A DNA stretch of 60,663 nt, the filler included. It is 3 parts of 3 records of this genome, joined end to end, with 100 filler letters (N's around TTAATTAATTAA, not from the genome) between each part and the next. Parts side by side here need not be neighbours in the genome. Positions count along the whole stretch, not along the records: positions 30,154 to 60,663 come from SRR2962707_2447; 2 more parts are not named here. One strand, 5' to 3'. The notes under the pieces were generated by a model. That model saw only the letters and a list, made by a program, of their open reading frames with translations. It was not told the origin of the DNA and searched no databases. The translations under genes and the position numbers were made by a program. Within the stretch, counting starts at the first letter, position 1. Every line of letters starts with the position of its first letter. Below, piece by piece: positions 27,974-53,939 of this stretch.

Positions 27974-28460
27974 TAGTTATCTGTCGCGCAGGTCACGCGC
28001 AACCGCGCGGCGGCATCAGGCGAGAAAAAACACGGCCGCCAGTCCCGGCAACAGGACGATTCTGGGAAGGGAAAGGTGGGCAAGCCGGTACGCAGAACTC
28101 TTCAATCCGGCCTGCAGCCACCTGAACACTTCGTGCCCTGACCCAGACACCTGATACGCAGCGTTCCGGGTAATTTGTGCACGCATACGGCAACTCCAAA
28201 CACATGAACCGTATGAACAATTTTTATCGCAAGGGGCTTAAAAAAGTGCTGATGAGAGGCAAACCGAACGTAAACCGGGCCATGATTTTGCGTCCCGGAA
28301 GTGTCCCAGGATGAGAATGCAGCGCCGGAGGAAAGTTGCGAAGGCGCAAGCTCAATCCTGTTGAAACACCTTGGAATCTGTGGTGTTTCCGCTCATATAA
28401 GCCGCCATATGATAGACCGGAATATCACTTGATTCGCCCGGCAAGAATTTTTTGAGGCCC

Positions 28461-30053
28461 ATGACCGACGACAACGATCTTTTTGGCGTCACGCCCCCCC
28501 AACCTGCCGCCGAGCCGCCCCGCCCCGCCCCGGCGCGCGCGCCAGCTCCATCAGGCTCTTATACGGCTGCAGATATCGAGGTGCTCGAAGGTCTCGAACC
28601 GGTGCGCCGCCGGCCGGGCATGTATGTGGGCGGGACCGACACCAACGCGCTGCATCATCTGTTCGCCGAAGTCATCGACAACTCGATGGACGAGGCGATC
28701 GGAGGGCACGCCACACGGATCGAAGTCCATCTCGGCGAAGACGGCTACATAACGGTGGTCGACAACGGTCGCGGCATCCCGGTCGACAACCACCCCAAAC
28801 AGCCCCATCTTTCCGCCCTCGAAGTGATCATGACGACGCTCCACGCTGGCGGAAAATTCGATTCCAAGGCCTATGAAACCTCGGGCGGCCTGCATGGCGT
28901 GGGCGTTTCAGTCGTCAACGCACTGACCGACGACCTTGTTGTCGAAGTCGCGCTCGAACAGACGCTCTACCGGCAGACCTATTCGCGCGGCAAGCCGACC
29001 TCGAAGCTCGAAAACATGGGTCGCGTCAACAACCGTCGCGGGACGACGATCCGCTTCCATCCCGACGCCGAAATTTTCGGTAACAGCGCGCGCTTCGTGC
29101 CGGATCGGGTTTTCCGCATGACTCGCGCCAAGGCCTATCTGTTTGGCGGTGTCGAAATCCGCTGGTCGTGCGACGAGTCTCTGGCCACTGACGAAGTCCC
29201 TGCCAAGGCCGTTTTCCACTTCCCCGGCGGGTTGCGCGATTTCATCGAGCGCCGCATTGAGGGCAGAACGCGCATTCTCGACGATATCTTCTCCGGCAGG
29301 ACGGGCAAGCCCGGCAGCCACGGGTCGGTCGAATGGGCGATCTCGTGGTATATCGGCGATAGCTTCACGTCCTCCTATTGTAACACTGTACCGACCCCCG
29401 ACGGCGGCACCCACGAAGCGGGCCTTCGCACCGCCCTGCTCCGCGGCCTGAAAAACTACGCCGACATGGTTGGCAACAAGCGCGCCTCGGCCATCACTTC
29501 CGAGGACGTTCTGGGCCATTGCGGATCCATGCTCTCCGTCTTTGTTCGCGAGCCCGAATTCGTCGGCCAGACCAAGGACAAGCTCGCCTCGGGCGAGGCC
29601 ACCCGTATTGTCGACAACGCCATTCGCGACGCCTTCGATCACTGGCTGACCGCCTCGCCCAATCAGGCCAACAAGCTGCTTGAATGGACCATCGAGCGCG
29701 CCGAGGACCGTCTGCGCCGCCGCAAGGAAAAGGAAATCGACAGGAAATCGGCCACCCGCAAGCTACGCCTTCCCGGCAAGCTGGCCGATTGTAGTCAGAC
29801 AGCAGCCCAGGGCGCCGAACTGTTCATCGTCGAAGGCGACAGCGCCGGCGGCAGCGCCAAGCAGGCGCGCGACCGCGCCAGCCAGGCGGTGCTGCCCCTG
29901 CGCGGCAAGGTGCTCAACGTTGCCGGCGCCAGCCGCGACAAGCTCGCGGCCAACCAGCAGATTGCCGATCTGCTGCAGGCGCTTGGCGTGGGCACACGTG
30001 ACAAATACCGGGAAGACGACCTTCGCTACGACAAGATCATCATCATGACCGAC
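28461..30053 (+). CDS. parE: DNA topoisomerase IV subunit B (3' truncated)
   Basis: YTAADIEVLEGLEPVRRRPGMY, EVIDNSMDEA, SGGLHGVG, VEGDSAGGSAKQAR, PLRGK; alphaproteobacterial ParE-type N-terminus. Confidence 0.88.
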
Positions 30054-30153
30054 NNNNNNNNNNNNNNNNNNNNNNNNNNNNNNNNNNNNNNNNNNNNTTA
30101 ATTAATTAANNNNNNNNNNNNNNNNNNNNNNNNNNNNNNNNNNNNNNNNNNNN
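30054..30153. other. Artificial contig spacer
   Basis: N44-TTAATTAATTAA-N44. Confidence 0.99.
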
Positions 30154-30154
30154 G

Positions 30155-33100
30155 TTCAACAACGAAGACGGCGGTGAACAGGGGAATTGGCAGGCATTTG
30201 ACGCCGACGGCAACCTTGTCGGAGAGGGCGTGCTGAACGCCTCGACAGTTGATTACAGCGGCTCGAGCAACGTCGGGACGGCGGAAATCTCCCTGCCCGA
30301 TGGTGAGTCGTTCCAATACCTGGTATTCACCTCGTCGGATACCGGGAACGATAATAATCAGAACGACTCGAGCGACTTCTTCATCCGCGCTCTGCAGTAT
30401 GAAACCAATGCAGAAGTGGCAGGTGAGGACGTCTTCACCTATACGATGCAGGATGCCGATGGCGATACCGCTTCGGCAACCCTCAGCATCGATGTTTCGG
30501 AAGAACAGGATACGACGGCTTCCGATCCGACACTGAATGTGACGGATGCCGCTGGCTTTGAAGATAATGCCATTCCGCTTGATATCGCCGCAGGCCTTGG
30601 TGATCTGGACGGTTCGGAAAGTCTCTCGATCAGCATTTCCGGCGTGCCGGCAGGTGCTGTTCTTTCCGCAGGGACTTACGATGCTGACAGCGATTCCTGG
30701 TCGATTGCACCAGAAGACATCGCTGGGCTGACGATCACGCCGCCTGCCGACAGCAACGAGGACTTCCCGCTGACGGTGACGGCGACGTCCACCGAAGCCA
30801 ATGGTGGCGATACGGCAACGACGACAGCGACAATCAATGTCGGCGTGACCGGTATTGCCGACATGCCGACCCTGTCACTGACCATCGGTGAACCCGAACT
30901 GACCACAACGGGTGGTGAGCCGGTTGAAACCACGATCAATGTAGACAACGTAACCGATGGAAACCTTGGTTTCTCGGTCACGGGGCGCTCCATCAATCAG
31001 GACGGATCGCTGACGGACGCATCGACGGACAACATCAGCTTCAATGCGAACCCGGTTGGTTTCGGCGTCTCGGGCGCTGCCTCGGGTGATCAGTCCGAAG
31101 TCGGTTTTGACAACCAGGAAGGTGTTTCGGAAGAACTGATCGTCAGCTTTGACAGCCCGGCATCCTCTGCTGACGTTTCTTTTGCCTGGATGCATCCGGG
31201 TGAGCAGGCGTCGTATGATCTGTATCTTGATGGCGTCAAAGTCGGTGAAGGTGTGATCACCGGTATTACCGACCAGATTGACCCGCCGGTGACTTTCACC
31301 GCAGAAGACGGCAGCCTGTTTGACCAGATCGTCTTCAAGGCACCCGACAGCGGTGATGATTATCTGATCAACTCGATCAGCTTTGAAACACCCACTGCAG
31401 GTGAAACGCTTGCCGAATACCCGCTGGATATCCAGTCTTCGCTGACCGATACCGATGGGTCTGAAACACTCTCGATCACGGTTGGCGGATTGCCGGAAGG
31501 TGCAGAACTTTCCGCAGGTACGCAGAACAATGATGGGACATGGACCCTGACCCCGGCTCAGTTGACGGGGCTGACCATGACCGTCGAGGCCGGGAATGAC
31601 GACTTTGAAATCCAGGTCACGGCAACGTCGACTGAAAACGACGGTGATACGGCATCGGTGACGGTGACCGCGGATGTCGGCGTGCCGAGTGGGGATCAGA
31701 CGGCTTCTGACCCGAACCTCACCGCAGGCGACGTAGGTGGGAATGAAGATACCGCAATCGCCCTGGATATCGCTTCCTCGCTCAGTGATACGGACGGCTC
31801 GGAAACGCTGTCGATCACGATTTCCGGTATGCCGGACGGCGCCGAGTTGTCGGCTGGCACCAACAATAATGACGGCACCTGGACATTGGCACCGGGTGAT
31901 CTTGACGGTCTGACGGTGACGCCGCCGGCCAATTCCAACGAAGATTTCTCGCTGACGGTAACGGCGACTTCGACGGAAAGCGCCAGTGGCGATACGGCGA
32001 CGCAAACCACCAGCTTTAATGTTGACGTCACCGGTGTGGCAGACACCCCGGGCGCTAGTGCGCAGAATGAAACCGGTGTCGAGGATCAGTGGATTCAACT
32101 GCATCTGGATAGCGCTATTTCCGAAGATACGGACGGCTCGGAAACCTTGTCGATCACTATCAGCGGCGTTCCGGAAGGTGCGCGCCTGAACCCGGGTACC
32201 GAAGTCGGTGACGGGGTATGGACTGCGACGGCAGCTGAATTGCCGAGTGTCTGCATCCTTCCGCCGGACGATTTCTCCGGTGAAATGTCGATGACGCTGA
32301 GCGTTACGTCCACGGAAGACGACGGCGACACTGCCACGACGGAAGTACCGTTCACTGTAAATGTGACGGGCGATGCCGATGCGCCGACAGTCAGCATCGG
32401 CAATGCTGCCGGGTATGAAGATCAGCCGATCGCACTCGATATCTCAGCGGCGCTGAGTGATACGGACGGCTCCGAAACCCTGTCGGTTACGATCGGCGGC
32501 GTTCCGGCGGGCGCCCAGCTTTCTGCAGGCATTAACAACAACGACGGCACCTGGACGTTGACGGGTCCGGAACTCGAGGGTCTCTCCATCACGCCGCCAG
32601 CAGACAGCAACGAAGATATGTCGCTGACGATTACGGCCACGGCTACCGAAGAAAACGGTGATACGGCCACAACGACGGGGACGATGAACGTCGCCGTGAC
32701 CGGTGTCGCCGATGCGCCAACCCTGTCGGCAACGATCGGCGAAGGCGTGGAAACGTCAACCGCCAGCGATATCACGATCACCAATATGGGTCAGGTCAGC
32801 GCCGGGTATAACAACAGCTACGGCTATTACGTCAAAGACGAAGACGGTAATCCCGGCGAAGGCATGGTGATCTGGACCAACGCCAAGGAAGATGTCGGAG
32901 ATACCTTCACGATTGAAGGCGTCGATCCGGACAGCATTGGCTTCTTCATTATACCGGACGGCGGTTCGCAGAACGGCAACCTTGATGCACAGACCCCGGT
33001 CACGTTCACTCAGGATCAGAACGGCAACTGGCAGGCTGTCGATGGCAACGGCCATGCGCTGAGTGCAGCAGGTGGCAGCGTGCTGTTCAATGATCCGGCC

Positions 33101-36100
33101 CTGAACAATGGTGACTTCGACTACACCACGGACAATTCAGTATCCGGTAATCAGAACTGGGAAGATCTGAATGGTGGCGGCGATAATGACTTTAACGACG
33201 TCAATGTGAACGTTGAAGTCACGAATAGCTCAGCCGGAAGCATGGTCGAGTACCCGCTGAACATCACATCGTCGCTGACGGATACGGATGGTTCGGAAAC
33301 CTTGTCGATCACCGTGTCCGGCCTGCCCGAGGGGGCCGAACTTTCCGCCGGCACGCAGAATAACGATGGTTCGTGGAGCCTGTCCGCCGGTCAGCTTGCC
33401 GGTCTTGTCATGACGGTTGCAGCCGGGGCCGAGAACTTCGAGCTTTCGATCACGGCAACTTCAACCGAAAACGACGGTGATGTTGCGACGGTCGGGGTGA
33501 CGCTGGATGTTGATGATGTGCCGGGTGGCGATAATGCTGCCGATGGCGTGAATCTCTCCGCAAGCAATGCCAGCGGCAATGAAGATACCGCGATTGCACT
33601 GGATATTGCCTCTTCACTGAACGATACCGACGGTTCGGAAAGCCTGTCGATCTCGATTGCCGGTGTGCCGGACGGGGCGACGCTGAGCGCAGGGACCAAG
33701 AACAACGATGGCACCTGGACGCTTGAACAGAGCGATCTGGCCAATTTGACCGTGACACCGGCTGATGACTCCGACGACAACATGTCGCTGACGATTACGG
33801 CGACATCAACGGAAACCTCCACCGGCGATACTTCTTCGCAGACGGCGACGATGAATGTGGCCGTGAATGCTGTTGCCGATGCGCCCACTCTGACCGCCAC
33901 GCTTGGCCAGGGTACTGTAAATCAGGGTGATCCGGTCGCAGGTGAAACCTCGACGGTCTTCTCTTCGAACTTCGGCAATTCCGATATCGGCTTCGTGCAG
34001 ACTGTAGACGGTTGGAGCACGAATTCAGATGCCATCGAGACGTGGGATTCTTCGAGCGGGGAAACCGGCGACGGTGCTTATGTCGAACTGAACGATGATG
34101 CTGTGGATCATTATGACGATGCAACCAGCATCAATCGTGATTTCCCGACTGAGGAAGGCGCGACATATACCCTGACATTCCGATATTCTCCGCGGCCGGG
34201 ATACGATGAAGACGTGAACCGGATGGATGTTCGTGTTGACGGCCAGTCTATCCAGACGGTGTCGGCAGACGGTTCAGGTAACTCTGATAACGTCTGGCAG
34301 ACCCAGACCATAACTTTCGTCGGCAACGGCGAAACCATGAACCTTGAGTTCCTGTCGACCGGCGAGGCACAGAATTATGGCCGTGGCATGCGCCTTGATG
34401 ATGTTGTGTTGACGGAAACCACTGCGGAAGAGCCCGGTGACGTAACCGTAGAATACCCGTTGGATATCTCGGCTGCCCTAACGGATACAGATGGTTCGGA
34501 AGAGCTGACAATCAGCATTTCAGATCTGCCGGAGGGGGCGCAGCTTTCTGCAGGAACCCAGAACAATGATGGTTCCTGGACGCTGAATGCCGGTCAGTTG
34601 ACCGGTCTGACCCTGACGGTTGCCGCTGGTACTGAAGATTTCAATCTGTCCGTTACGGCGGTCTCGACTGAAACATCAAACGATGATGCCGCGTCAACGT
34701 CGCTCTCGCTGTTCGTAGATGTGCCGGAGGTCAATACAGACAATGCCGCTGATGGCGTGAACCTGTCCGCAGGTGATGTCAGCGGCAATGAAGATGCTGC
34801 GATTGCGCTGGATATCGCGTCGTCACTGAACGATACGGATGGATCTGAAAGCCTGTCGATTACGATCAGCGGTGTGCCGAACGGGGCGGTGCTCTCTGCC
34901 GGCACGAAAAACAACGATGGTACGTGGTCACTGGAAAGCGGGGACCTGGACGGCCTGACGATCACGCCGTCTGATGACTCCGACGAAGACATGACGCTCA
35001 CGGTATCCGCAACGTCGACCGAAAGCGCAAGCGGGGATACGTCGACACAGACGGTTACCATGAACGTCGGCGTCAACGCCGTAGCCGATGCACCGACCCT
35101 CAGTGCTGTTATTGGCGACCCGGTCATCGGTGGCGGTGCCGAAACCGTGAATGTACCGCAGTCGATCATTGACGCCGCAAGTGCCGAAGACGACCGTACG
35201 GTTACGGTATCCGGAGTTGGCGAAGGTGTAATGCTCTCCGCCGGAACGGATAATAGTGACGGCACCTGGACGTTGACGGCTGCTCAGCTTGAAGGACTTT
35301 CAGTCAGCACGGAAGATGGCAGTGCTGCCGATCTTTCGCTTGGCTTCTCGGTCATTGATGCCGGTGGCGGTTCGGAAACCCTGGTGTCCGCAGACTTCTC
35401 GTCGGGTGCACAGGGATTTGTCTATAACGACGGTGTGTTCAGCGCCGATAATGCATCGTCCTATAACCAGTATTATGAAAGCGGGACGGCCAGTAACGGC
35501 AACCTCAGTGTCACGCTGGGTGGCGTTGACGGCCATGACAAAACGGACCTGTCCGGTGGTCACTCCATCAACTTCGATGTGGATGATGCAGGCAGCGGTA
35601 CGCTGACCTTCAACTTCCGGATGGAACGTGGTGCCAACTTCGAAAGCGACGAAGACGGCATGGTTGTCGTGTCCATTGATGGTGTCGAGTACGAAGTTGC
35701 CACACACCAGGGTGATGGTGATGGCGGCAGCAGTTATGACAGTGGTTGGCAGACGGTGACGATCGATGTCGGTGATCTTGGCAGCGGCACCCACACCCTG
35801 ACCCTTGGCGCTCAACTTGAAAAGAAAACCGCTTCTGACGAAGTCATGAAGGTGTCGTTCGACAATGTGAGCCTGTCCGTAACATCTGAAAATTCAGAAG
35901 TTGCTAGCGCAACTGTGGATGTGGATGTCGATGCTCAGAATGTGACGTTCGATCTTGATATCGACGCAGCACTAACTGACACAGACGGTTCCGAAACCCT
36001 TTCCGTCACTGTCTCTGATTTGCCGGAAGGTGCGACCCTTTCCGCAGGAACTCAGAACAATGACGGTACGTGGACACTGTCGCCGGCGCAATTGACCGGT

Positions 36101-38467
36101 CTGACCATGACGGTCGCCGCGGGTGCCGGTGACTTCAACCTTTCGGTTGCTGCGGTCTCGACGGAGCAGAATGGCGGAGATACCGCAACCACGACGACCA
36201 CGATTGCGGTCGACGTGCCGGCGGTTGTAGCCGACCAGACAGCCGATGGTGTGAACCTCTCCGCAGGTGATGTCAGCGGTAATGAAGATACGGCAATTGC
36301 CCTGGATATCGCATCCTCACTGAACGATACGGATGGCTCGGAAAGCCTGTCGATCACGATCGGTGGTGTGCCGAACGGGGCTGTACTTTCCGCCGGCACC
36401 AACAACAATGACGGCACCTGGACATTAAACTCAGGTGACTTGACCGGCTTGACGATTACACCGCCGGCCGACAGCAATGAAGACTTTACGCTGAGTGTGA
36501 CGGCGGTTGGCGCCGAAACCGAAGGTGGCGGATCCGCAACTCAGACGGCAAGCTTCAATGTTGATGTGACCGGTGTGGCAGACGGTGCCAGCGTCTCCGC
36601 CTCGGCGACACTTGTTGAAGGTCACCTTGGTGGAGGCGGTTCTCAGACAGGATCCCACCATGGTACAGGCAGTGGTTCGGGCCATGGCTACGACAGCGAC
36701 CTCATCGCCTTTTTCGAGGTGACAGAAGATGACGACGGTAATCAGATCGATAACCAGGTTGGCGGAAATGACGGCGATAATCACTACGTCGGCATCAACA
36801 ATAACAGCGATGGGCCGAGTGGGACTTCCGCCGTATTCGACGGCAACAACGACTACATCGAAGTCGATCACAGTTCCAATATGGAAGCCGAATCCGGCAC
36901 GTTCGTGCTGTGGTTCAATACAGAAGATGCAGACTGCAAACAGGGCTTGTTCTCAAAGGACTCCAGCGGATACGACAGCGGTGGTCACTTAACGGCTTTC
37001 GTTGATGATGGCCAACTTCAGGTTCGTATGCAGAGCACCAATTCAAGTTATATGGTGCAGGGCGGAGATGTGACCAGCGGTGCCTGGCATCAGATGGCCT
37101 TCTCGTACGGTCCGGACGGTATGCGCCTGTATCTGGACGGGAACCTTGTTGACAGCGACAGTTTCACAGGTGGCATGCAGGGCAATCAGGAACCTCTGAT
37201 CTTCGGTGCCAATCAGTGGACGAGCGGCGACGGGGTAGCAAATAACCTGCAGGACTTCTTCACCGGAGAAATGGACAAGATCGCTGTTTACGATCGTGCC
37301 CTGACGCCGACGGAAATCGCCAATATGCATGAGGCCGGTGTGTCGCAGGTCGTAACTGAAGAAGGCGAAACCCTGGTCTACGACCTGGATATCGAAGGCA
37401 CGCTTGTGGATGTTGACGGTTCCGAAACCCTCTCGTTCGAGGTGCGCGGTCTGCCGGACGGGGTCACGCTGTCGGCCGGTCAAAGTGACGGCAACGGTAC
37501 GTGGTCCCTGTCTACTGCTGATCTGAGCGGGCTGACGATGACCGTCGATCCGAGTGTCAGTGAGGACTTCTCGATCGAAGTCGTGGCCATTGATACAGAA
37601 AATGACGGCGACTCCGCAGAATCACCGGTCGTATCTCTGGATATCGATGTAACGATTGAAGAGCCGGTTGAAATCAACGGGACTTGGCAGAGCGAAACTC
37701 TTGAAGGTGCCGGCGGAAATGACTCGATCTCCGGGAATGATGGCCACGACAAGCTCTATGGCTTCGGTGGCGATGATATTCTCAACGGCGGGTCGGGGAA
37801 CGACTCCCTATTCGGTGACGCCGGTGACGACGTCATGGACGGCGGGACCGGACACGATTATCTGTCGGGTGGTGCCGGAAACGATACCCTCACTGCCGGT
37901 GATGGCGACGATACCCTTGATGGCGGCAGCGGCAACGACGATATGTTCGGTGGTACCGGGCATGATGTCATGCTGGGCGGCGAGGGGAATGACGACCTTG
38001 AAGGTGGTCATGGAGATGATCGTCTGTACGGCGGTGACAATGACGACGCGCTCGACGGCGGTACAGGTCATGATCGTCTTTATGGTGGTGACGGGAACGA
38101 TGTCCTCAGCGGTGGTGACGGCAACGACACCCTGCAGGGCGGAGCAGGCGACGATATCTTGACTGGTGGCTCTGGCCAGGACCGCTTCGAATTCGATACG
38201 CAGAGCGGCCACGACATCATCCAGGACATCATGGAGCAGGACACCGTTGTCTTCGAAGGTCAGGAGTTCCATGCCGACGACATGATCTTCAACGAAAACG
38301 AAGACGGGGACGTGGTTGTTTCCTTCGCCGGGGTCGAAGGTCAGTCGGTGACACTGAACGGTGTCAGCATGGACGATCTGGACCGGAACGGCGACGGCGA
38401 TATCAGCGACGGTTACTCCGTAACCGAATCGAACGGCTCGGTATCACTGACCATCGACTCGCAGTAA
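30155..38467 (+). CDS. Giant T1SS-secreted RTX adhesin (LapA-like), 5' truncated, more than 2770 aa
   Basis: Frame is open from the contig edge; many DTDGSETLSITISG.P.GA.LSAGT.NNDGTWTL Ig/cadherin-like repeats; inserted lectin-like domains; C-terminal GGxGxD RTX nonapeptides. Confidence 0.95.
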   Translation, partial: FNNEDGGEQGNWQAFDADGNLVGEGVLNASTVDYSGSSNVGTAEISLPDGESFQYLVFTSSDTGNDNNQNDSSDFFIRALQYETNAEVAGEDVFTYTMQDADGDTASATLSIDVSEEQDTTASDPTLNVTDAAGFEDNAIPLDIAAGLGDLDGSESLSISISGVPAGAVLSAGTYDADSDSWSIAPEDIAGLTITPPADSNEDFPLTVTATSTEANGGDTATTTATINVGVTGIADMPTLSLTIGEPELTTTGGEPVETTINVDNVTDGNLGFSVTGRSINQDGSLTDASTDNISFNANPVGFGVSGAASGDQSEVGFDNQEGVSEELIVSFDSPASSADVSFAWMHPGEQASYDLYLDGVKVGEGVITGITDQIDPPVTFTAEDGSLFDQIVFKAPDSGDDYLINSISFETPTAGETLAEYPLDIQSSLTDTDGSETLSITVGGLPEGAELSAGTQNNDGTWTLTPAQLTGLTMTVEAGNDDFEIQVTATSTENDGDTASVTVTADVGVPSGDQTASDPNLTAGDVGGNEDTAIALDIASSLSDTDGSETLSITISGMPDGAELSAGTNNNDGTWTLAPGDLDGLTVTPPANSNEDFSLTVTATSTESASGDTATQTTSFNVDVTGVADTPGASAQNETGVEDQWIQLHLDSAISEDTDGSETLSITISGVPEGARLNPGTEVGDGVWTATAAELPSVCILPPDDFSGEMSMTLSVTSTEDDGDTATTEVPFTVNVTGDADAPTVSIGNAAGYEDQPIALDISAALSDTDGSETLSVTIGGVPAGAQLSAGINNNDGTWTLTGPELEGLSITPPADSNEDMSLTITATATEENGDTATTTGTMNVAVTGVADAPTLSATIGEGVETSTASDITITNMGQVSAGYNNSYGYYVKDEDGNPGEGMVIWTNAKEDVGDTFTIEGVDPDSIGFFIIPDGGSQNGNLDAQTPVTFTQDQNGNWQAVDGNGHALSAAGGSVLFNDPALNNGDFDYTTDNSVSGNQNWEDLNGGGDNDFNDVNVNVEVTNSSAGSMVEYPLNITSSLTDTDGSETLSITVSGLPEGAELSAGTQNNDGSWSLSAGQLAGLVMTVAAGAENFELSITATSTENDGDVATVGVTLDVDDVPGGDNAADGVNLSASNASGNEDTAIALDIASSLNDTDGSESLSISIAGVPDGATLSAGTKNNDGTWTLEQSDLANLTVTPADDSDDNMSLTITATSTETSTGDTSSQTATMNVAVNAVADAPTLTATLGQGTVNQGDPVAGETSTVFSSNFGNSDIGFVQTVDGWSTNSDAIETWDSSSGETGDGAYVELNDDAVDHYDDATSINRDFPTEEGATYTLTFRYSPRPGYDEDVNRMDVRVDGQSIQTVSADGSGNSDNVWQTQTITFVGNGETMNLEFLSTGEAQNYGRGMRLDDVVLTETTAEEPGDVTVEYPLDISAALTDTDGSEELTISISDLPEGAQLSAGTQNNDGSWTLNAGQLTGLTLTVAAGTEDFNLSVTAVSTETSNDDAASTSLSLFVDVPEVNTDNAADGVNLSAGDVSGNEDAAIALDIASSLNDTDGSESLSITISGVPNGAVLSAGTKNNDGTWSLESGDLDGLTITPSDDSDEDMTLTVSATSTESASGDTSTQTVTMNVGVNAVADAPTLSAVIGDPVIGGGAETVNVPQSIIDAASAEDDRTVTVSGVGEGVMLSAGTDNSDGTWTLTAAQLEGLSVSTEDGSAADLSLGFSVIDAGGGSETLVSADFSSGAQGFVYNDGVFSADNASSYNQYYESGTASNGNLSVTLGGVDGHDKTDLSGGHSINFDVDDAGSGTLTFNFRMERGANFESDEDGMVVVSIDGVEYEVATHQGDGDGGSSYDSGWQTVTIDVGDLGSGTHTLTLGAQLEKKTASDEVMKVSFDNVSLSVTSENSEVASATVDVDVDAQNVTFDLDIDAALTDTDGSETLSVTVSDLPEGATLSAGTQNNDGTWTLSPAQLTGLTMTVAAGAGDFNLSVAAVSTEQNGGDTATTTTTIAVDVPAVVADQTADGVNLSAGDVSGNEDTAIALDIASSLNDTDGSESLSITIGGVPNGAVLSAGTNNNDGTWTLNSGDLTGLTITPPADSNEDFTLSVTAVGAETEGGGSATQTASFNVDVTGVADGASVSASATLVEGHLGGGGSQTGSHHGTGSGSGHGYDSDLIAFFEVTEDDDGNQIDNQVGGNDGDNHYVGINNNSDGPSGTSAVFDGNNDYIEVDHSSNMEAESGTFVLWFNTEDADCKQGLFSKDSSGYDSGGHLTAFVDDGQLQVRMQSTNSSYMVQGGDVTSGAWHQMAFSYGPDGMRLYLDGNLVDSDSFTGGMQGNQEPLIFGANQWTSGDGVANNLQDFFTGEMDKIAVYDRALTPTEIANMHEAGVSQVVTEEGETLVYDLDIEGTLVDVDGSETLSFEVRGLPDGVTLSAGQSDGNGTWSLSTADLSGLTMTVDPSVSEDFSIEVVAIDTENDGDSAESPVVSLDIDVTIEEPVEINGTWQSETLEGAGGNDSISGNDGHDKLYGFGGDDILNGGSGNDSLFGDAGDDVMDGGTGHDYLSGGAGNDTLTAGDGDDTLDGGSGNDDMFGGTGHDVMLGGEGNDDLEGGHGDDRLYGGDNDDALDGGTGHDRLYGGDGNDVLSGGDGNDTLQGGAGDDILTGGSGQDRFEFDTQSGHDIIQDIMEQDTVVFEGQEFHADDMIFNENEDGDVVVSFAGVEGQSVTLNGVSMDDLDRNGDGDISDGYSVTESNGSVSLTIDSQ
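30490..37660 (+). repeat. Intragenic Ig-like repeats of about 100 aa
   Basis: Recurring GATAC(G/C)GA(C/T)GG(T/C)TC(G/C)GAAA and AACAA(T/C)GA(C/T)GGCACCTGGAC; near-identical units start at about 33535, 34742 and 36238. Confidence 0.9.
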
Positions 38468-38488: not shown

Positions 38489-38527
38489 AAACGCCTCTCT
38501 GGTTTGAGACCGGAGAGGCGTTTTTAT
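38489..38527. terminator. Intrinsic terminator, probably bidirectional
   Basis: AAACGCCTCTCTGGT-TTGAG-ACCGGAGAGGCGTTTTT. Confidence 0.85.
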
Positions 38528-38547: not shown

Positions 38548-40863
38548 CTATTCCGCAGCGTCCTCGACGGTGGGGTCGGCCCTGAAGTGTGCCCAGCGCC
38601 GCATGCCGCCCCGGTTTTCCAGGTAATTGACCAGTGCAGTTACGGGTTTCCTGTCGAACTTGCTTTCCGACATTTCCATCAGGATATCCGATACCTTTCT
38701 GAACGGCATAGCGCCACGGTAGGCACGGGGACTGACCATACCGACAAAGGCATTGGCGACGGCCAGAATGCGTGACGTGTTGATGATTTCCTCTTCCTTG
38801 AGGCCGAGCGGCCCCTTGCCGTCCCATGTTTCGCCGAACTGACGGATGGTTTCAACAACAGGCCCTTCAAAGGTGACCTGCTCGATCAGGTCCACCGTCG
38901 TCAGGTAGGCATTGGAAACGAGCATGCGCTCTTCTTCCGTCAGATCATCGGTTTTCATCAGAAGCTCTTCGGGGACGAAAATTTTCCCGAGGTTCATCAG
39001 GCTGCCGGAAATATCGACTGTTTTGATATCGATATCTTCAAGGCCCATTTCATTGGCGATGGCACGTGAAACTTCCGCCACGCGCGATGAATGGTTGGCA
39101 GAGAACGGATCGCGGCGGTCCACGACACTGACCAGGGTATCGATCAGTTCTTTCATCATCTTTTCCGATTTCAGGCGGGCAACCTGCAACTCGGTAATAT
39201 CATCGATGACAAGAAGGCATCCCGGCGGATAGTCACGGTCACCTCTAAGCGGCAGCCCATCCACCTTGACCACCTGAAAGGCGTTTTCATCTTCAGGGTC
39301 CAGGACGTCGGGGTTACCGAACGTGAATATCTTTTGCTGGCGCTCAAAATCATCAATGACACGCTTGATCAGCGACGAATATTCCTGCGCTTTGACCGGT
39401 CCGATGACGGCAGCCATGGTCTTGCCCTTGATATCTGTAATCGGGATGCCGTTGGCTTCCGCAACGGGCATGTTGGCAAAGGTATAGACCGTGTTGCGAT
39501 CGACGGCACAGATCTGCGTCGGTTGATTGTCCGTCACCATGCGCATGAATTTGGTCAGGTTCTCAAAACGCTCCACCAGGACCTGAGCCCTGTGCAGGGC
39601 TTCCGATGCCCGCGCGGATGCGGCGTTCTTCCAGACAAACAGGATCGTCAGGGCCACGATGACGATAATCGCAATGAACACCCCAAGAATGAAGTTGAGG
39701 CGATTTTCAATTGGTCCCAGGGCTTCATCTCTTGAAACCTTACGCACCAGTATCCACGGCACCTGGGCAACTTCGCGCGATACCATCAGAACACGGTCAC
39801 CGCTGTAATCCAGGTTATTGATAAAGCTGCCGGGGATATTGATGGCTTCGGAAATCGCCAGATTGGGCGATGCCAGGGCCATGGTGCGTTTCAGGGCGCC
39901 GGTGCCGTCACGCTGCGGTGAGAGATACTCGACCTTTCCGCCGTCTTTGCGCACCAGCAGGGTTTCCGCTGTTTTGGTCAGGGTGCCGGGCTGCACCAGC
40001 TTTTCCCACAACGCGTCGTCGACAAGGCGTATGCCGACAACTGCGCCGATGCCCTTGGCGCCGCCGCCGCCTTCCTGCATGGCATAGACCGGCATGGCAA
40101 AGCCGATGGTCGGCTCACCACTGGCACCCAGATACATGTCGATAATGGCCGGGTCTCCGTCCAGCGCTTTGCGGACGGCTTCCTTGATGCGTCCGGTAAT
40201 CGGCGGCATGTCGGGTGTGGATATGATGGGTTCGGCATTCCTGTCGACGAGGCCAAGGCCGGCAACGCCGACACGTTCCACATTGGCGGCGATTTCACCG
40301 ACCGGTGGCGGGGCTTTGAACGGTGACCGTTCCGCCGTGGCAATCAAAAGGTTCCTGAGGAACCCTTGTGATGCGCTGGCGCCGATACCGGCGCCGCCGG
40401 ACCCGCTGCCGTCCAGTCCCTGAAGCAGGGAATCAGCCGCTGAAAGGCCCTGATCGGCAGGTGCCGCAGCCGTATCTCCTGCCGGTGCGGCAGACGCCAG
40501 TTCCGACATGTAAAGTTGCAGAGAGGCGTTCTGCGTCAGCTCGCGCAATACCTTGAAGTTGTCGTCGATCCAGTCGTTCACGGCGCCGACGCGGGAGTCG
40601 GCGACGATGCCGAGCCTGACCTGCCAGGCCTGGGTTTCACGCTTCATCTCCTCATCGACGTAGAGCTTGGCGAGGATCAGAGAGCCGACGAGTAGCAGGC
40701 CGATGAAAACGGCACCCGCCAGGAAGTACTTGTTCACCTTGCGGGGCGGCAGTTCCTGCTCCTTGCGGACAGTGTCATCAATTGCGCTCGACGAAACGCC
40801 ATCCTGCTTTTCAGGCTCTTTCGTTTCGTCACTACTTTGCTTGCGGCGAAGCCTTAGCGCCAT
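38548..40863 (-). CDS. Membrane sensor: TM, periplasmic Cache-like domain, TM, PAS, degenerate HD-GYP
   Basis: Two TM segments; RDPFSANHSSRVA, ETWDGKGP.GL, SRILAVA.AF..M.SPRAYR HD-GYP scaffold with most metal ligands substituted. Confidence 0.88.
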   Translation of the reverse strand: MALRLRRKQSSDETKEPEKQDGVSSSAIDDTVRKEQELPPRKVNKYFLAGAVFIGLLLVGSLILAKLYVDEEMKRETQAWQVRLGIVADSRVGAVNDWIDDNFKVLRELTQNASLQLYMSELASAAPAGDTAAAPADQGLSAADSLLQGLDGSGSGGAGIGASASQGFLRNLLIATAERSPFKAPPPVGEIAANVERVGVAGLGLVDRNAEPIISTPDMPPITGRIKEAVRKALDGDPAIIDMYLGASGEPTIGFAMPVYAMQEGGGGAKGIGAVVGIRLVDDALWEKLVQPGTLTKTAETLLVRKDGGKVEYLSPQRDGTGALKRTMALASPNLAISEAINIPGSFINNLDYSGDRVLMVSREVAQVPWILVRKVSRDEALGPIENRLNFILGVFIAIIVIVALTILFVWKNAASARASEALHRAQVLVERFENLTKFMRMVTDNQPTQICAVDRNTVYTFANMPVAEANGIPITDIKGKTMAAVIGPVKAQEYSSLIKRVIDDFERQQKIFTFGNPDVLDPEDENAFQVVKVDGLPLRGDRDYPPGCLLVIDDITELQVARLKSEKMMKELIDTLVSVVDRRDPFSANHSSRVAEVSRAIANEMGLEDIDIKTVDISGSLMNLGKIFVPEELLMKTDDLTEEERMLVSNAYLTTVDLIEQVTFEGPVVETIRQFGETWDGKGPLGLKEEEIINTSRILAVANAFVGMVSPRAYRGAMPFRKVSDILMEMSESKFDRKPVTALVNYLENRGGMRRWAHFRADPTVEDAAE

Positions 40864-41082
40864 GCCGTCCCCCCTAGATTGCGTCTATATCGAAGAATCA
40901 TGATAACCGGTTATAAAGACAAGCGGAATCCCTTCGTTTGCAGGAAACTACGGTGTGTTCCAGCGCACTTTCATGGGGATCGCTTTAGGTATATATTCTG
41001 TTTCATGGAAACTATTTTTTCCTTTGCTATCAATAGGCTGCAGTCAGGCAGATGCCTTTGTAAAGATGCTGTCCGCAAGGCA

Positions 41083-41763
41083 TTGTGGCGCAAGGCATTA
41101 GTGATTGCTGCCGCTTGGCTGGCTCTTGGCGGGGGCATGAACATGGCCGTCGCCGGCGAATCGCCGACCCCGAGCTTTTTCAACACTGTCGAAGTCCGCT
41201 CTAAAAACCTGTCCCCGTTCAAGAAATGGCTTTCCGCGCTGGATCGTTACTCAAAGGAAGCCAAGGCCCCCAAAAGGGTGGCATGCCCGCCCAGTGATGA
41301 CCTGCACATCTGTGGTTATGACGATTGGGTAGCCTTTCTGAAAACGCTGGAAGGCAAGGAACCGCTGGTTCAGTTGAATGAGGTCAACAATCGTATCAAC
41401 CAGGCCAAATATGTGACCGATAAAGCCAACTGGGGTCAGAATGATTACTGGGCAACGCCGGCCGAGTTCATGTCCCGTTTCGGCGACTGTGAAGATTACG
41501 CCATTCTGAAATACCTGTCGCTCCGCCGGCTGGGGTGGAAGGAAAACGATCTTCGCGTCGTTGCCGTCAAGGATCTGAACCTGAAAGTCGGTCACGCGGT
41601 GCTGATCGTGTTCTTTAAGCACCCCAAGACGGGGCAGGTTCTGTCGTTGCTGCTGGACAATCAGATCAAGTCGATCGCCAACGCGGCGTCGATCCGCCAT
41701 TACCAGCCCGTGTTCTCGATCAACAAGTATTTCTGGTGGCGGCACACGCCCGTAACGGGCTGA
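41083..41763 (+). CDS. lapG: Transglutaminase-like cysteine protease (BTLCP, LapG family)
   Basis: Signal peptide after TTG 41083; VNNRIN, Y.TD..NWG..DYWATP.EF, GDCEDYA (Cys), GHAVL (His), LLDN (Asp), YQPVFSIN. Confidence 0.9.
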   Translation: MWRKALVIAAAWLALGGGMNMAVAGESPTPSFFNTVEVRSKNLSPFKKWLSALDRYSKEAKAPKRVACPPSDDLHICGYDDWVAFLKTLEGKEPLVQLNEVNNRINQAKYVTDKANWGQNDYWATPAEFMSRFGDCEDYAILKYLSLRRLGWKENDLRVVAVKDLNLKVGHAVLIVFFKHPKTGQVLSLLLDNQIKSIANAASIRHYQPVFSINKYFWWRHTPVTG

Positions 41764-47394: not shown

Positions 47395-47748
47395 TCAGGT
47401 GTGGCGCTGACAGTCGATGCAGTTCGGCGCACTGGGATCGTTTTCAAGTCTTTTAAGGGCGATATCTTCGTCACAGATGGTGCAAAAGCCATAATCACCG
47501 GTTTCGATACGCTCCAGCGCCGCATTGATGCGGTGGCGCTCGATGTCACGCCGGCGTTCCGTTTCCAGTTGCATGGCCTGTCCCTGAAGGGCATCCATGC
47601 GGGACAGTCTGCCGACGGAAGTCTGGTCAAGTTCCACAGGCTTTCTGGACTCCGCCGAGATATCCGACAGCGCATCCAGTTCGTCACGCATTTTGACCAA
47701 TCGTTTCTTAAAGCCGGAAATCTGTTGCTTGGTCAGGGGCACGGTCAT
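47395..47748 (-). CDS. TraR/DksA C4 zinc-finger protein
   Basis: ELDQTSVGRLSRMDALQ, YGFCTIC...CIDCQ; ATGA overlap with the adaptor gene. Confidence 0.9.
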   Translation of the reverse strand: MTVPLTKQQISGFKKRLVKMRDELDALSDISAESRKPVELDQTSVGRLSRMDALQGQAMQLETERRRDIERHRINAALERIETGDYGFCTICDEDIALKRLENDPSAPNCIDCQRHT

Positions 47749-49043
47749 CGCTCCCGCAAGGCGTCCTGCATGCGTCCGACAAGTGGATCAAGAATGTATT
47801 CCATGACGGTACGCGATCCGGTCTGGATAGAGGCAATGACCTGCATGCCGGGGAACAGATCGTAACGCAGTTTCCCATCCTCGAAATAGCTCCGTTCCGT
47901 GGAAATCCGGACCTTGTAAAACGGACGGCCTTCTTCGGTGACCAGCGTGTCGGGCGAAACGCGATCCACGACGCCTTTCAGATCACCGAATTTGGCGGCA
48001 TCGGCGGATGCCAGCGTGACTTTTGCAGCCTGACCGGCACGCACGTAGCCGATATCCTGCGGCGGCAACTGGGCGTCGATGATCAGTCGATCATCCGCGG
48101 GGACGATATCAACAACCGTCGTCCCGGCACGGACGACACCACCGACGCTGACGACGTATAAAGATTTGATAATACCGTCTACGGGCGCGCGCAGCGTGGT
48201 CCGGTTGAGGTTGTCCTCGACCTTGCGGATGCGTTGCGAAAGCTCGTCCATTTCGCGCGTGACCTTATCCAGTTCGGTCTGTGCTTCCTCTCTGAACGAA
48301 GCGCGGATGGTTTCCATATTGGCCTGGGCTTCGCCAAGCGCCGCGCGAAGACGCGGTAAAGCAGCTTCAGCTTCATCGATGCGGCCGCGAAGGTCGGCTG
48401 CTTCCTTGAGCAGATTAAGGTGCAGCATCCGGTTGGTCAGTTCTTGAGCCAGAAGCTTTTCCGAAATGTCGATCTGTTCCGTGATCAGTTTCAGACTTTT
48501 CTGTGCGCTGGCGCGACGCTGCTGGACTTCCTTGATCTCCAGTTCGCGCTGACGGATGGCATCTTCCTGAGCACGAACCTGCCCCAGCATGCGTTTTTTT
48601 CGGGTTTCAAAAAGCGCGATGGACTGGCGGATCAGTTCCGGTTCCGCCTTGACGAGAGCAGGGGGGAATTTCGGCTGGTCCAGTCCGGCAAGTTGGGCAT
48701 TGTAGCGCGAAATGTCGGCGAGCAATGACCTCAGCCGGATCTTAAGCTCCTGAACATCGGCGCCGCTCTGTGTCTGTTCCAGTTCGACGAGTGATTGGCC
48801 GGCAGTGACGCGATCTCCTTCCTTGACCAGAATGGCGCGGACGATCCCGCCTTCCAGGTGATCGACCGATTGCACATTGGTGGAAGGGGATACTTCGCCG
48901 GTGGCAACGGAAACAATGTCGAGTTCCGCATTGTTCGCCCAGATCGAAAAGGCCAGGAGCGCAGCGATGCACAAGCCGAGGAACATGTGTGTCCCGCGTT
49001 TGACCTCGTCGTCTTCGGGGTTCGGCTCTATTTCTTCACTCAT
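47745..49043 (-). CDS. T1SS periplasmic adaptor (HlyD/LapC family)
   Basis: HLEGGIVRAILVKEGD, long coiled coil, LRAPVDG, LFPGM, ALRER end. Confidence 0.95.
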   Translation of the reverse strand: MSEEIEPNPEDDEVKRGTHMFLGLCIAALLAFSIWANNAELDIVSVATGEVSPSTNVQSVDHLEGGIVRAILVKEGDRVTAGQSLVELEQTQSGADVQELKIRLRSLLADISRYNAQLAGLDQPKFPPALVKAEPELIRQSIALFETRKKRMLGQVRAQEDAIRQRELEIKEVQQRRASAQKSLKLITEQIDISEKLLAQELTNRMLHLNLLKEAADLRGRIDEAEAALPRLRAALGEAQANMETIRASFREEAQTELDKVTREMDELSQRIRKVEDNLNRTTLRAPVDGIIKSLYVVSVGGVVRAGTTVVDIVPADDRLIIDAQLPPQDIGYVRAGQAAKVTLASADAAKFGDLKGVVDRVSPDTLVTEEGRPFYKVRISTERSYFEDGKLRYDLFPGMQVIASIQTGSRTVMEYILDPLVGRMQDALRER

Positions 49044-50743
49044 GACGCCGTCTCCGTTCGCACGACACGGGGTTTGTTTTGCCGTAATACGGGCGTCGGT
49101 TTGCTGTCCAGATCAAGGATCAAGGTTGCGGCACTGACGATTTTTGGATTTCGTGAAAAGGCGATAATGGTTTTCCCACGCCGGGCCATATCGATCAGGG
49201 CGGAATACACGAAGGCCGTGCCTTCCTCATCAAGGCTTTCCGTCGGTTCGTCCAGTACTGCAAGTTTACCGCCCACGAACATAGCGCGGGCAAAGGCAAG
49301 CCTGCGGCGCTGGCCCAATGCCATATTGCCGCCGCCGTTGGTGATGATCCGGTCCATCCCGTCGGGGCTTTCGTCGACAAACGGCCCCAGTCCGACTTCG
49401 CGGACAATCCGCATCAGGGTTTCTTCCGTCTGATCGGGGTTGGCGGCTTCCATGTTGGCGCGCAGGGATGCATTGATGAAGGTCGGCTCCTGGGGGAGAT
49501 ACATCAACTGGGCGCGCCACCAAGCAGGATCAAGCTGCTTCAAGTCGACACCATCTGCGAGAATTTGACCACGTGCCGGATGCAGAAGGCCTGCCGTCAT
49601 CTTTGCCAGTGTCGACTTTCCGGCGCCGTTCGATCCGGTCACGACCATCACCCCACCGGGCGGAAGTTTGAAATTCAGCCCCTCAAAAAGCGGCGTGTTG
49701 GCTCCCGGGTAGGAGAACGAGACATCACGGAATTCAATCTGGCCATTGAACTGGCTGAGTTTGGCGCCTTTCCCCTGTTCGACGGGGAGTGTGGCGAATT
49801 CGCGGACCTTGGCGAGGGCATTCTCGGCCTTGGCAAAGGTTTCCCCAAGCTGGGCGAATTTGATCATCGGACCAAGCGTGCGGGCGGAAAGAATATTGGC
49901 GCCGATCAGCAAGCCGACATCAAGCTCTCCGTGCACCACAAGCCACGCACCGGTGGAATAGATGAAAACGCTCATCAATGCCTGGGCGCTTTGGGTAACG
50001 GATTGCACGAGTGCCTGCCGGCGCGCGATCAGCGCTCTGAGCAACCGGGACCGTTCACTCGCTTTGGTCCATGCTTCCGTGATGATGGAACGGCCACCGA
50101 AAGCACGTATCGTATCGGTTGCGCCGTTGGCATTGTTCAGCAGCCCTGAAACTTCATTCTGTGCACCGCTCAGGGTCGTCATCGGTCCGCGCAGGCTGCG
50201 TTGGGACTGGACTGCGAACAGGAAGATCACGATCAGGAACCCAACGGCGATAGCCGCAAGATGCGGGCTGAGCATGAACAGGGCAATGGCGAACAGAATT
50301 GCAAACGGAACATCGATGACCGAGGTGATGTTACCGGGGGTATAGGCGTTTTCGACTAGATCAAGGCCGCGCACGACTTCACGTCTTTCGCCGGGCGGAA
50401 TGCTCATCAGCGCCATGCTTTCTGCGGTGTTGAGAATACCGAAGGCGCCGGTCGACAGTTCGTCGTCCTTTTTGGCGCTTAGACCCCGTGCGAGTTTCAG
50501 GCGGGCCTGTCGAAAGCCGAGTTCAAGGGCAATGGCAATCAGGACGCCCGAAGCAAGGGCAGCAAGTGTGGCATCGACGCCCTGTCCGACATAGCGGTTC
50601 AGCACCTGAATCACGAACAGGGGAGAGGCGAGCGCAAGTATATTGGCAAACAGTGAGGCCGCCACAATCTCTGCGGTCAAACCCGGTTTGGCTTTCAGGC
50701 GTCTTAGTAATTCACCCATTCGCTCGCCTGTCGATTGCTCCAC
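49040..50743 (-). CDS. T1SS ABC transporter, no C39 domain, degenerate nucleotide-binding domain
   Basis: NILALASPLFVIQVLNR TM domain, GSNGAGKST Walker A, VLDEPT Walker B; signature MALGQ; H-loop FSRN. Confidence 0.9.
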   Translation of the reverse strand: MEQSTGERMGELLRRLKAKPGLTAEIVAASLFANILALASPLFVIQVLNRYVGQGVDATLAALASGVLIAIALELGFRQARLKLARGLSAKKDDELSTGAFGILNTAESMALMSIPPGERREVVRGLDLVENAYTPGNITSVIDVPFAILFAIALFMLSPHLAAIAVGFLIVIFLFAVQSQRSLRGPMTTLSGAQNEVSGLLNNANGATDTIRAFGGRSIITEAWTKASERSRLLRALIARRQALVQSVTQSAQALMSVFIYSTGAWLVVHGELDVGLLIGANILSARTLGPMIKFAQLGETFAKAENALAKVREFATLPVEQGKGAKLSQFNGQIEFRDVSFSYPGANTPLFEGLNFKLPPGGVMVVTGSNGAGKSTLAKMTAGLLHPARGQILADGVDLKQLDPAWWRAQLMYLPQEPTFINASLRANMEAANPDQTEETLMRIVREVGLGPFVDESPDGMDRIITNGGGNMALGQRRRLAFARAMFVGGKLAVLDEPTESLDEEGTAFVYSALIDMARRGKTIIAFSRNPKIVSAATLILDLDSKPTPVLRQNKPRVVRTETAS

Positions 50744-53729: not shown

Positions 53730-53939
53730 TGCCGGACTACGCTGGTATCAAAGCGTGAGAGGGGAATCCATTGCAAGCCTTGATTGAAAGGCTTTACCAA
53801 TAATCACAATCGCATAACAATCTGACAACAAAGCATTGCAATTAGGTGGGTCGAAGTTGTTTTGCATATCTGGTAATCTTTTTCATCATCGATTGATGGG
53901 CTGCGCCGTCAGGCGTTTGTGGCAGGAACGGGGGAAATC

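Follow-up and report, generated by a model that had tools for sequence, protein, structure and literature searches.

A Probable DvhD-Type Adhesin-Release Locus with a Degenerate HD-GYP Receptor in Rhodospirillales

The window described here, a stretch of 60,663 nucleotides, carries on one of its contigs a giant RTX adhesin gene, a gene for a membrane receptor with a degenerate HD-GYP domain, and a gene for a LapG-like cysteine protease (Table 1). This locus is probably (we place the probability at roughly 0.72) an alphaproteobacterial member, from a marine bacterium of the Rhodospirillales, of the DvhD/DvhG/DvhA adhesin-release system, in which a catalytically dead HD-GYP domain would serve as the cyclic-dinucleotide receptor. 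It is not a new kind of system, for the papers on DvhD describe exactly this logic; what is novel is the alphaproteobacterial member. The reference proteins are DvhD (DVU1020), DvhG (DVU1019), and DvhA from Desulfovibrio (Nitratidesulfovibrio) vulgaris Hildenborough, with PDB entries 9rc0, 9rbz, and 9rc2. According to Karbelkar et al. (PNAS 2024, PMC10990149), D. vulgaris lacks LapD, and DvhD, a predicted inactive HD-GYP protein, binds cyclic diguanylate (c-di-GMP) and regulates the cleavage of DvhA by DvhG. Font et al. (Nat Commun 2026, PMC13090378) report that DvhD binds c-di-GMP and does not hydrolyze it. The term "Alphaproteobacteria" does not occur in the main text of the latter paper, the class-level figure and supplements of which may list members. 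In the literature search on DvhD/DVU1020, degenerate HD-GYP domains, and LapG-like proteases, all papers found on this system concern Desulfovibrio.

On the basis of the homology to DvhD, the binding of the ligand would alter the dimeric PAS/HD-GYP stalk, and this change would be relayed through the membrane to the dCache domain on the periplasmic side, and that domain would thereby restrain the neighboring periplasmic LapG-like cysteine protease. A drop in the nucleotide level would release the protease to cleave the giant type-I-secreted RTX adhesin at its N-terminal anchor in the periplasm; the cut adhesin would slip from the TolC-like pore, and the cell would detach. Three steps of this scheme, namely nucleotide binding, contact between receptor and protease, and cleavage of the adjoining adhesin, are transferred to the present locus by analogy. 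The first-pass annotation of this DNA had proposed just such an inside-out switch with a pseudo-phosphodiesterase as the receptor, and the proposal is supported by the homology to DvhD in both halves of the receptor, by the conserved synteny, and by the search of close relatives, in which no canonical LapD was found.

The receptor and its degenerate HD-GYP domain

The receptor gene had been read initially as encoding the order transmembrane (TM)-Cache-TM-PAS-HD-GYP, and this is confirmed: the open reading frame (ORF) has exactly the boundaries given in Table 1, its product matches Pfam PAS_4 and HD_5, and the dCache domain is evident from a structural model. The same TM-dCache-TM-PAS-HD-GYP architecture is found in DvhD, which is also the best PDB match in both halves of the protein. 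The PAS/HD-GYP part (residues 451-755) aligned to the DvhD sequences of 9rc0 and 9rbz with E values of 1.7e-38 and 3.1e-32, respectively; the active enzymes V-cGAP3 (5z7c), PmGH (4mcw), and PA4781 (4r8z) followed at 2.7e-13, 1.2e-12, and 3.2e-6. With a 57-sequence family profile, the E value was 4.2e-80 for DvhD as compared to 1.6e-43 for the best active enzyme. The dCache entry of DvhD gave no match by sequence with this profile, and the likeness of the periplasmic domains is seen by fold only.

An AlphaFold2 model of receptor residues 68-400, calculated from a 66-row alignment, displays a mean predicted local distance difference test score (pLDDT) of 91.5 and a predicted template modeling score (pTM) of 0.86. 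The modeled domain is composed of two α/β lobes lying behind a long N-terminal helix, α1, which is broken in two (model helices 2-43 and 46-58); helix α1 of the DvhD periplasmic domain is likewise reported to be broken in two (PMC13090378). An Ala/Gly/Ser-rich insertion, formed by approximately residues 125-168 of the receptor, is of low model confidence. When the periplasmic model was compared with the PDB by Foldseek, the top match was 9rc2, "DvhD, periplasmic domain" (E 1.1e-12, TM 0.60/0.77), with a sequence identity of only 16%, which sets the receptor apart from DvhD; the runners-up were ordinary dCache sensor domains with E values of 1.5e-8 and weaker. Pfam dCache_1 is, in addition, precomputed on many homologues of the receptor. 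These sequence and model comparisons support homology to DvhD over both halves, and the Desulfovibrio analogue that the first-pass annotation had named is thus borne out by 9rc0 and 9rc2. The predicted complex of the dCache domain with the LapG-like domain received a score of 0.03 and a mark of 0.34 with the alignments unused, and it speaks neither way on binding.

The HD-GYP domain contains the sequences LMNLGK at 622, QFGE at 675, G-P at 684-685, AVAN at 701-704, and PRAYR at 712-716, all as initially noted. The further claim that "HP" has become AY was loose, given that the histidine aligns to Asn 651 against PmGH and to Ser 650 against V-cGAP3. Alignment with active PmGH (4mcw) covers eight positions that we take, from our reading of the alignment, to be the metal ligands. 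Only one of these, His 591, is kept. The glutamate preceding it is replaced by Phe 587, the HD pair by Met 623 and Asn 624, the next histidine by Asn 651, the HH pair by Phe 676 and Gly 677, and the last aspartate by Asn 704. Note that the glutamate of the HHE motif is retained as Glu 678 and that GYP is reduced to G-P. Judged from this alignment, the metal site of the HD-GYP domain is lost. The receptor shares with the active enzymes the HD_5 fold and the substrate-contacting R-x-Y-R/K region, but differs from them in the seven replaced positions and in the shortened GYP motif. In DvhD, too, the metal-binding HD, HH, and D residues are gone, whereas the R-x-Y-R, Met, and Leu contacts and the bridging-site proline are retained. 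DvhD is less degenerate. Its HD pair is SQ, as compared to MN here.

Among 1.84 billion cluster representatives, 530 proteins matched the receptor at E <= 1e-30; those listed are mostly full-length homologues, about 700 residues long and 31-55% identical to it. The query and the 150 best of these 530 representatives were aligned as a family of 151 sequences. None of the 151 contains the canonical HD, and in 139 it is replaced by x-N. Gln 675 is found in 126, Glu 678 in 120, and Asn 704 in 132; G-P without an intervening residue is found in 46 and G-Y-P in 17. Because the same substitutions recur throughout the family, the pattern of degeneracy is, from these alignments, not due to chance. The contact residues are strongly conserved, with Arg 713 present in 141 sequences, Arg 716 in 142, and Leu 641 in 139, and position 715 is nearly always aromatic or histidine (Tyr in 71, His in 39, Trp in 23, and Phe in eight).

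The c-di-GMP contacts described for DvhD (PMC13090378) were mapped onto the receptor through the 9rc0 alignment, with the offset checked on all eleven named residues. Leu 577, Met 646, Arg 650, Tyr 652, and Pro 567 of DvhD correspond to identical residues, Leu 641, Met 709, Arg 713, Tyr 715, and Pro 631, and there are three conservative replacements, Lys 582 by Arg 646, Lys 520 by Arg 584, and Tyr 523 by Phe 587. Thus in the canonical nucleotide site four of eight residues are identical (L, M, R, Y) and two are conservatively replaced (K to R, Y to F), and in the bridging site the proline is kept and lysine is replaced by arginine; the remaining positions of both sites are taken up below. The nucleotide pocket is plausibly retained, though not identical to that of DvhD. 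Most likely the sole role of the HD-GYP domain would be the binding of a cyclic dinucleotide, with c-di-GMP as the most probable ligand, and by analogy with DvhD the receptor would not be expected to hydrolyze this ligand.

The protease, the adhesin, and the layout of the locus

The first-pass annotation had described an intact Cys/His/Asp lapG gene that is divergent from the receptor gene, and this holds exactly: the ORF runs from 40879 to 41763 on the plus strand. The accompanying statement that lapG directly follows the adhesin does not, for it is the receptor gene that follows the adhesin, after a gap of 80 nucleotides, and lapG lies on the far side. The gene order is therefore adhesin (+), receptor (-), lapG (+), with the receptor convergent with the adhesin and divergent from lapG. 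The 294-residue translation of the lapG ORF matches Peptidase_C93 (PF06035) with 64.6 bits (cut-off 27) and aligns to the LapG structures 4fgo and 4u65 with E values of 7.5e-19 and 7.3e-18. The catalytic and calcium-binding residues, GDC204ED, His 239, and Asp 260, show no variation across an alignment of 60 relatives, from which one gene with four stop codons (L043) and three rows running past the natural stop were left out. By sequence, the protein is a distant relative of LapG. As in the DvhD system, a bacterial transglutaminase-like cysteine proteinase (BTLCP) with the triad and the GDCED calcium motif adjoins a giant type I secreted adhesin, and no LapD was found in the window or in close relatives. 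The DvhD system differs, however, in that here lapG is divergent from the receptor gene and other genes come between the module and the secretion genes.

Translation of lapG most likely begins at Met 43, because the upstream frame has stops in several relatives. A 294-residue protein starting at TTG was considered and rejected: the conserved "MITG..KRNPFV" translation is interrupted by stops in several relatives, and therefore it is the DNA (CATGATAACCGGTT, GGAATCCC) that is conserved there and not the protein. From Met 43 onward, the N-terminus displays a hydrophobic segment followed by AVA-GE and looks like a signal peptide. Most DvhG orthologues are reported to carry signal peptides; in contrast, DvhG itself has a TM helix and a linker of about 180 residues, described as peculiar to Hildenborough (PMC13090378).

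The part of the adhesin that is present is characterized by repeated β-rich modules, cadherin/Ig-like domains, Laminin_G_3, DUF4114, and C-terminal RTX nonapeptide repeats, the C-terminus matching HemolysinCabind with 120 bits. A full-length homologue of about 5823 residues is encoded by G001, a complete 4.26-Mb chromosome the receptor of which is 98% identical to that of the window. Its N-terminus contains a conserved small β-rich region (about residues 30-80), a Gly/Ala-rich stretch, and a FecR-type domain (175-267). In the adhesins of four relatives, the retention-like domain is followed by a helix-like segment and then by a conserved motif, PTRNxxGERTSANTY. Approximately 140 residues precede the retention-like FecR domain in these adhesins (L014 6372-7871 of G001; L107-L109), an N-terminal addition relative to DvhA.

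The module lies on the second contig (30154-60663) of the window, which was assembled by joining contigs through an artificial spacer. At this joint the GC content changes from 0.615 to 0.541 and the GC skew from negative to positive, and a parE/gyrB-like ORF (28452-30054) is cut inside its Toprim domain. The 80-nucleotide gap between the adhesin and receptor genes contains a hairpin that is probably a bidirectional terminator. Within the divergent intergenic region, the blocks CATGATAACCGGTT, GGAATCCC, and TATATATT are likely candidates for promoter or operator elements of the divergent pair. In the window CATGATAACCGGTT belongs to a palindrome, ATAACCGGTTAT, and TATATATT lies immediately 5' of the lapG start.

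Genes for a type I secretion apparatus are located 6 kb downstream of the module. The adaptor matches TIGR01843 with 409.7 bits (cut-off 208.65), and the ABC gene covers only the later part of its profile and is therefore without an N-terminal C39-like domain. The TolC-family protein ends in approximately 470 residues for which no family was matched. Farther along, an ORF at 53919-56873 (+) encodes a 984-residue fusion of a Peripla_BP_6 domain with an MscS-type mechanosensitive channel.

Table 1. Coordinates of the locus and of associated features in the window.
Feature	Position	Strand	Remarks
Artificial spacer	30055..30153	none	runs of N around TTAATTAATTAA
Giant RTX adhesin gene, 3' part	30154..38467	+	ORF listed from 30230; 2745 aa present; 5' end cut by contig start
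Hairpin, probable bidirectional terminator	38489..38523		16-bp stem, T-rich tails on each strand; located where the adhesin and receptor genes converge
DvhD-type receptor gene (P0001)	38548..40863	-	771 aa: TM1 45-71, periplasmic dCache, TM2 384-417, PAS, degenerate HD-GYP
Receptor degenerate HD-GYP domain	38650..39135	-	residues 577-738; Pfam HD_5
Receptor PAS domain, cytoplasmic	39187..39531	-	residues 445-559; Pfam PAS_4; aligned to the DvhD PAS domain in 9rc0
Receptor dCache domain, periplasmic	39715..40650	-	about residues 72-383; AlphaFold2 model and Foldseek
Divergent receptor-lapG intergenic region	40864..41004		blocks CATGATAACCGGTT, GGAATCCC, TATATATT conserved among 13 relatives
LapG/DvhG-like BTLCP (C93) cysteine protease gene (P0002)	41005..41763	+	from conserved Met43 (most likely start); ORF opens at 40879
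HlyD-family type I secretion adaptor	47745..49043	-	TIGR01843
Type I secretion ABC permease/ATPase, LssB-like	49040..50743	-	profile positions 143-666 only
TolC-family outer-membrane protein	50834..53569	-	TolC part = residues 39-437 of 911

Linkage among relatives and the search for LapD

The receptor is found at 75-98% identity in 13 species-representative genomes, all of which are labeled Rhodospirillales metagenome-assembled genomes (MAGs), and the order adhesin/receptor/lapG is kept in all 13 of these close loci. In G001 (L012 7678-8958) an extra ORF of 426 residues, absent from the window, lies between prfC and lapG. A wider search of species-representative genomes with a 12-row alignment revealed 422 related stretches, of which the best 80 loci were examined. 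All 80 belong to Alphaproteobacteria; their labels include Rhodospirillales, Magnetovibrio, Thalassospiraceae, some Hyphomicrobiales or Rhizobiaceae, and also Paramagnetospirillum kuznetsovii, Magnetospira, and Caenispirillum bisanense. Where at least 1150 nucleotides of upstream flank were available, a lapG-like gene was present in 63 of 69 loci, always upstream and on the opposite strand; the other 11 loci have less than 500 nucleotides of upstream flank, and lapG was seen in none of them. Many of the 80 also have an RTX C-terminus on the downstream side. In one Rhodospirillales MAG (L043 4940-5503), a lapG-like gene with four stop codons stands beside an intact receptor gene, which reflects either a pseudogene or faulty assembly.

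Co-occurrence of the receptor with lapG in the Rhodospirillales, to which the initial proposal had pointed, is observed in a sample of 151 genomes of the order (receptor threshold E <= 1e-30; overlap determined by comparing the receptor and C93 lists by hand). The receptor was found in 70 genomes and C93 in 86; both are present in 69 and neither in 64, such that 69 of the 70 receptor-bearing genomes also contain C93, and the module is a common one in the order. The one receptor-only genome (G018) has a partial match. In five close relatives there is a single C93 gene each, located at the receptor locus. A second, distant receptor-like gene, 25-27% identical to the receptor of the window, was observed beside C93 in four instances (G153:C298, G143:C33, G067:C71, G044:C19), and for the C93 of this second divergent pair the match to the Pfam model is more complete, with profile positions 15-157 covered.

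The absence of a GGDEF-EAL LapD from the contig, as initially claimed, stands insofar as no EAL domain was matched anywhere in the window; the claim reaches no farther than the contig itself, and the sole GGDEF match of the window is on another contig, at 2054-2539 (-) by tblastn, within a protein encoded at 1991-3055 (-). Apart from the dead HD-GYP domain, that protein contains the only c-di-GMP-turnover domain in the window. A canonical LapD elsewhere, the possibility of which had been raised, was looked for in relatives. LapD_MoxY_N (PF16448) was found in none of the five close relatives, where the built-in controls were silent as well; in the sample of the order it is above the cut-off in two of 151 genomes, and the search is therefore able to see the domain. 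None of the seven EAL-bearing ORFs of G001 displays the TM/HAMP/GGDEF-EAL layout of LapD. The G001 chromosome encodes eight GGDEF matches, and thus c-di-GMP can be made, along with five strong EAL domains.

The likeness to the LapD/LapG/LapA system of Pseudomonas fluorescens lies in its plan, namely a cytoplasmic c-di-GMP receptor, a homologous periplasmic C93 protease, and release of an RTX adhesin anchored by type I secretion. The receptor, however, is unrelated to LapD, and no LapD_MoxY_N, HAMP, GGDEF, or EAL domain was found in it.

Weighing of the alternatives and significance

Several observations weigh against a DvhD-type switch at this locus, and they are given here together with the alternatives on which they bear. 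In the pocket, the GYP tyrosine (Tyr 621 of DvhD, a phosphate contact) is deleted from the receptor. The specificity glutamate, Glu 668, aligns to Met 731, with Glu 730 and Glu 733 adjacent across a one-residue gap. Arg 569 of the bridging site aligns to Glu 633, and the column of Lys 582 is variable across the family. Because the tyrosine that contacts c-di-GMP in DvhD is missing, the identity of the ligand is something that we infer. A receptor of the same architecture and output that is tuned to another nucleotide, such as 3'3'-cyclic GMP-AMP (3'3'-cGAMP), pGpG, or yet another, is nevertheless unlikely. The loss of the tyrosine and the unclear conservation of the guanine-specifying Glu 668 would fit such a receptor, DvhD's HD-GYP domain is reported to accommodate 3'3'-cGAMP also (PMC13090378), and the PDB relative ranked second, 5z7c, is a phosphodiesterase for cGAMP. 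Yet the stacking and phosphate contacts provided by Leu 641, Met 709, Arg 713, and Tyr 715 are kept, and the near-identical relative G001 is well furnished with the GGDEF and EAL domains noted above.

With respect to the adhesin, its ORF is cut at the contig start, and therefore the N-terminal anchor with the retention module and the protease site is outside the window. In G001 the retention_LapA model (NCBIfam) matches adhesin residues 142-206 with 30.6 bits, below the cut-off of 50. Where LapA and DvhA carry [T/A/P]AAG, the adhesins of the relatives read N-S-D-G, N-S-E-G, or N-S-A-G, and only one of four has N-A-A-G, a difference from DvhA. The only di-alanine invariant in the first 400 residues of these four, IQAAE at about residue 117, lies upstream of the retention-like domain. 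The protease site of the adhesin is thus possibly non-canonical. In addition, the type I secretion genes are separated from the module by prfC, chaC, EamA, and MatE genes and by one gene of unknown type. Might the receptor and protease act as proposed, with the adjoining RTX adhesin not the substrate, or not the sole one? The missing [T/A/P]AAG in three of four adhesins and the sub-threshold retention module speak for such a reading, but it is distinctly unlikely in view of the adhesin-receptor-protease order in every close locus, the RTX C-termini downstream of many of the best 80, the lone C93 at this locus in the five relatives, and the conservation of the N-terminal FecR/retention-like domain and the PTRNxxGERTSANTY motif.

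Linkage and homology also have their exceptions. Six of the 69 loci lack lapG despite ample flank (L075, L076, L078, L102, L104, L105), their neighbors being housekeeping genes (a thiamine pyrophosphate enzyme, gamma-glutamyltranspeptidase, DNA polymerase III alpha, PrmA), and 17 genomes of the order contain C93 without the receptor. Differing in this from the protease of the Lap system, the LapG-like protein falls far below the cut-off of the LapG equivalog NF045674 (98.2 bits, cut-off 320). The contig of the module covers only 30.5 kb, and the wider search for LapD was conducted in relatives rather than in its own genome. One could imagine from the lapG-less loci an outside-in sensor, with a small molecule of the periplasm as the ligand of the dCache domain, with the dead HD-GYP domain as no more than a scaffold or protein-interaction output that senses no nucleotide, and with a regulatory or incidental connection to lapG. 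Indeed, dCache domains are typically ligand sensors, the next-best fold matches are amino-acid chemoreceptors, and a periplasmic ligand could not be excluded for DvhD itself (PMC13090378). An arrangement of this type is very unlikely, however, given the strong conservation of Arg 713, Arg 716, and Leu 641 in spite of lost catalysis, the pairing with C93 in all but one of the receptor-bearing genomes, and the binding of c-di-GMP by the homologue DvhD (PMC13090378). Finally, a phosphodiesterase operating through a non-canonical site, for which the retained His 591 and Glu 678 would speak, is extremely improbable with seven of eight metal-ligand positions replaced, the replacements conserved family-wide, and the less degenerate DvhD reported to show no hydrolysis (PMC13090378).

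The DvhD-type assignment can be extended, speculatively and with considerable doubt, to the proposal that Alphaproteobacteria, in particular marine Rhodospirillales, Magnetovibrio, and Thalassospiraceae, and not the sulfate reducers, are the main home of such switches, and that this clade has diverged to a pocket without the GYP tyrosine, possibly with another ligand preference, and to a release site without di-alanine (N-S-D/E-G). If true, a non-di-alanine release site would widen the known specificity of the LapG family.

For annotation, the receptors would be distinguished from "c-di-GMP phosphodiesterases" by a family-wide signature in which HD has become x-N, HHE has become Q-x-x-E, GYP has become G-P, and the aspartate has become N, with R-x-[YHW]-R kept. 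With this assignment, the DvhD/DvhG logic would reach beyond the Desulfovibrionales into a large and mostly uncultured group of marine Alphaproteobacteria, and receptors with a dead HD-GYP domain may be in wide use in place of LapD instead of being peculiar to sulfate reducers.

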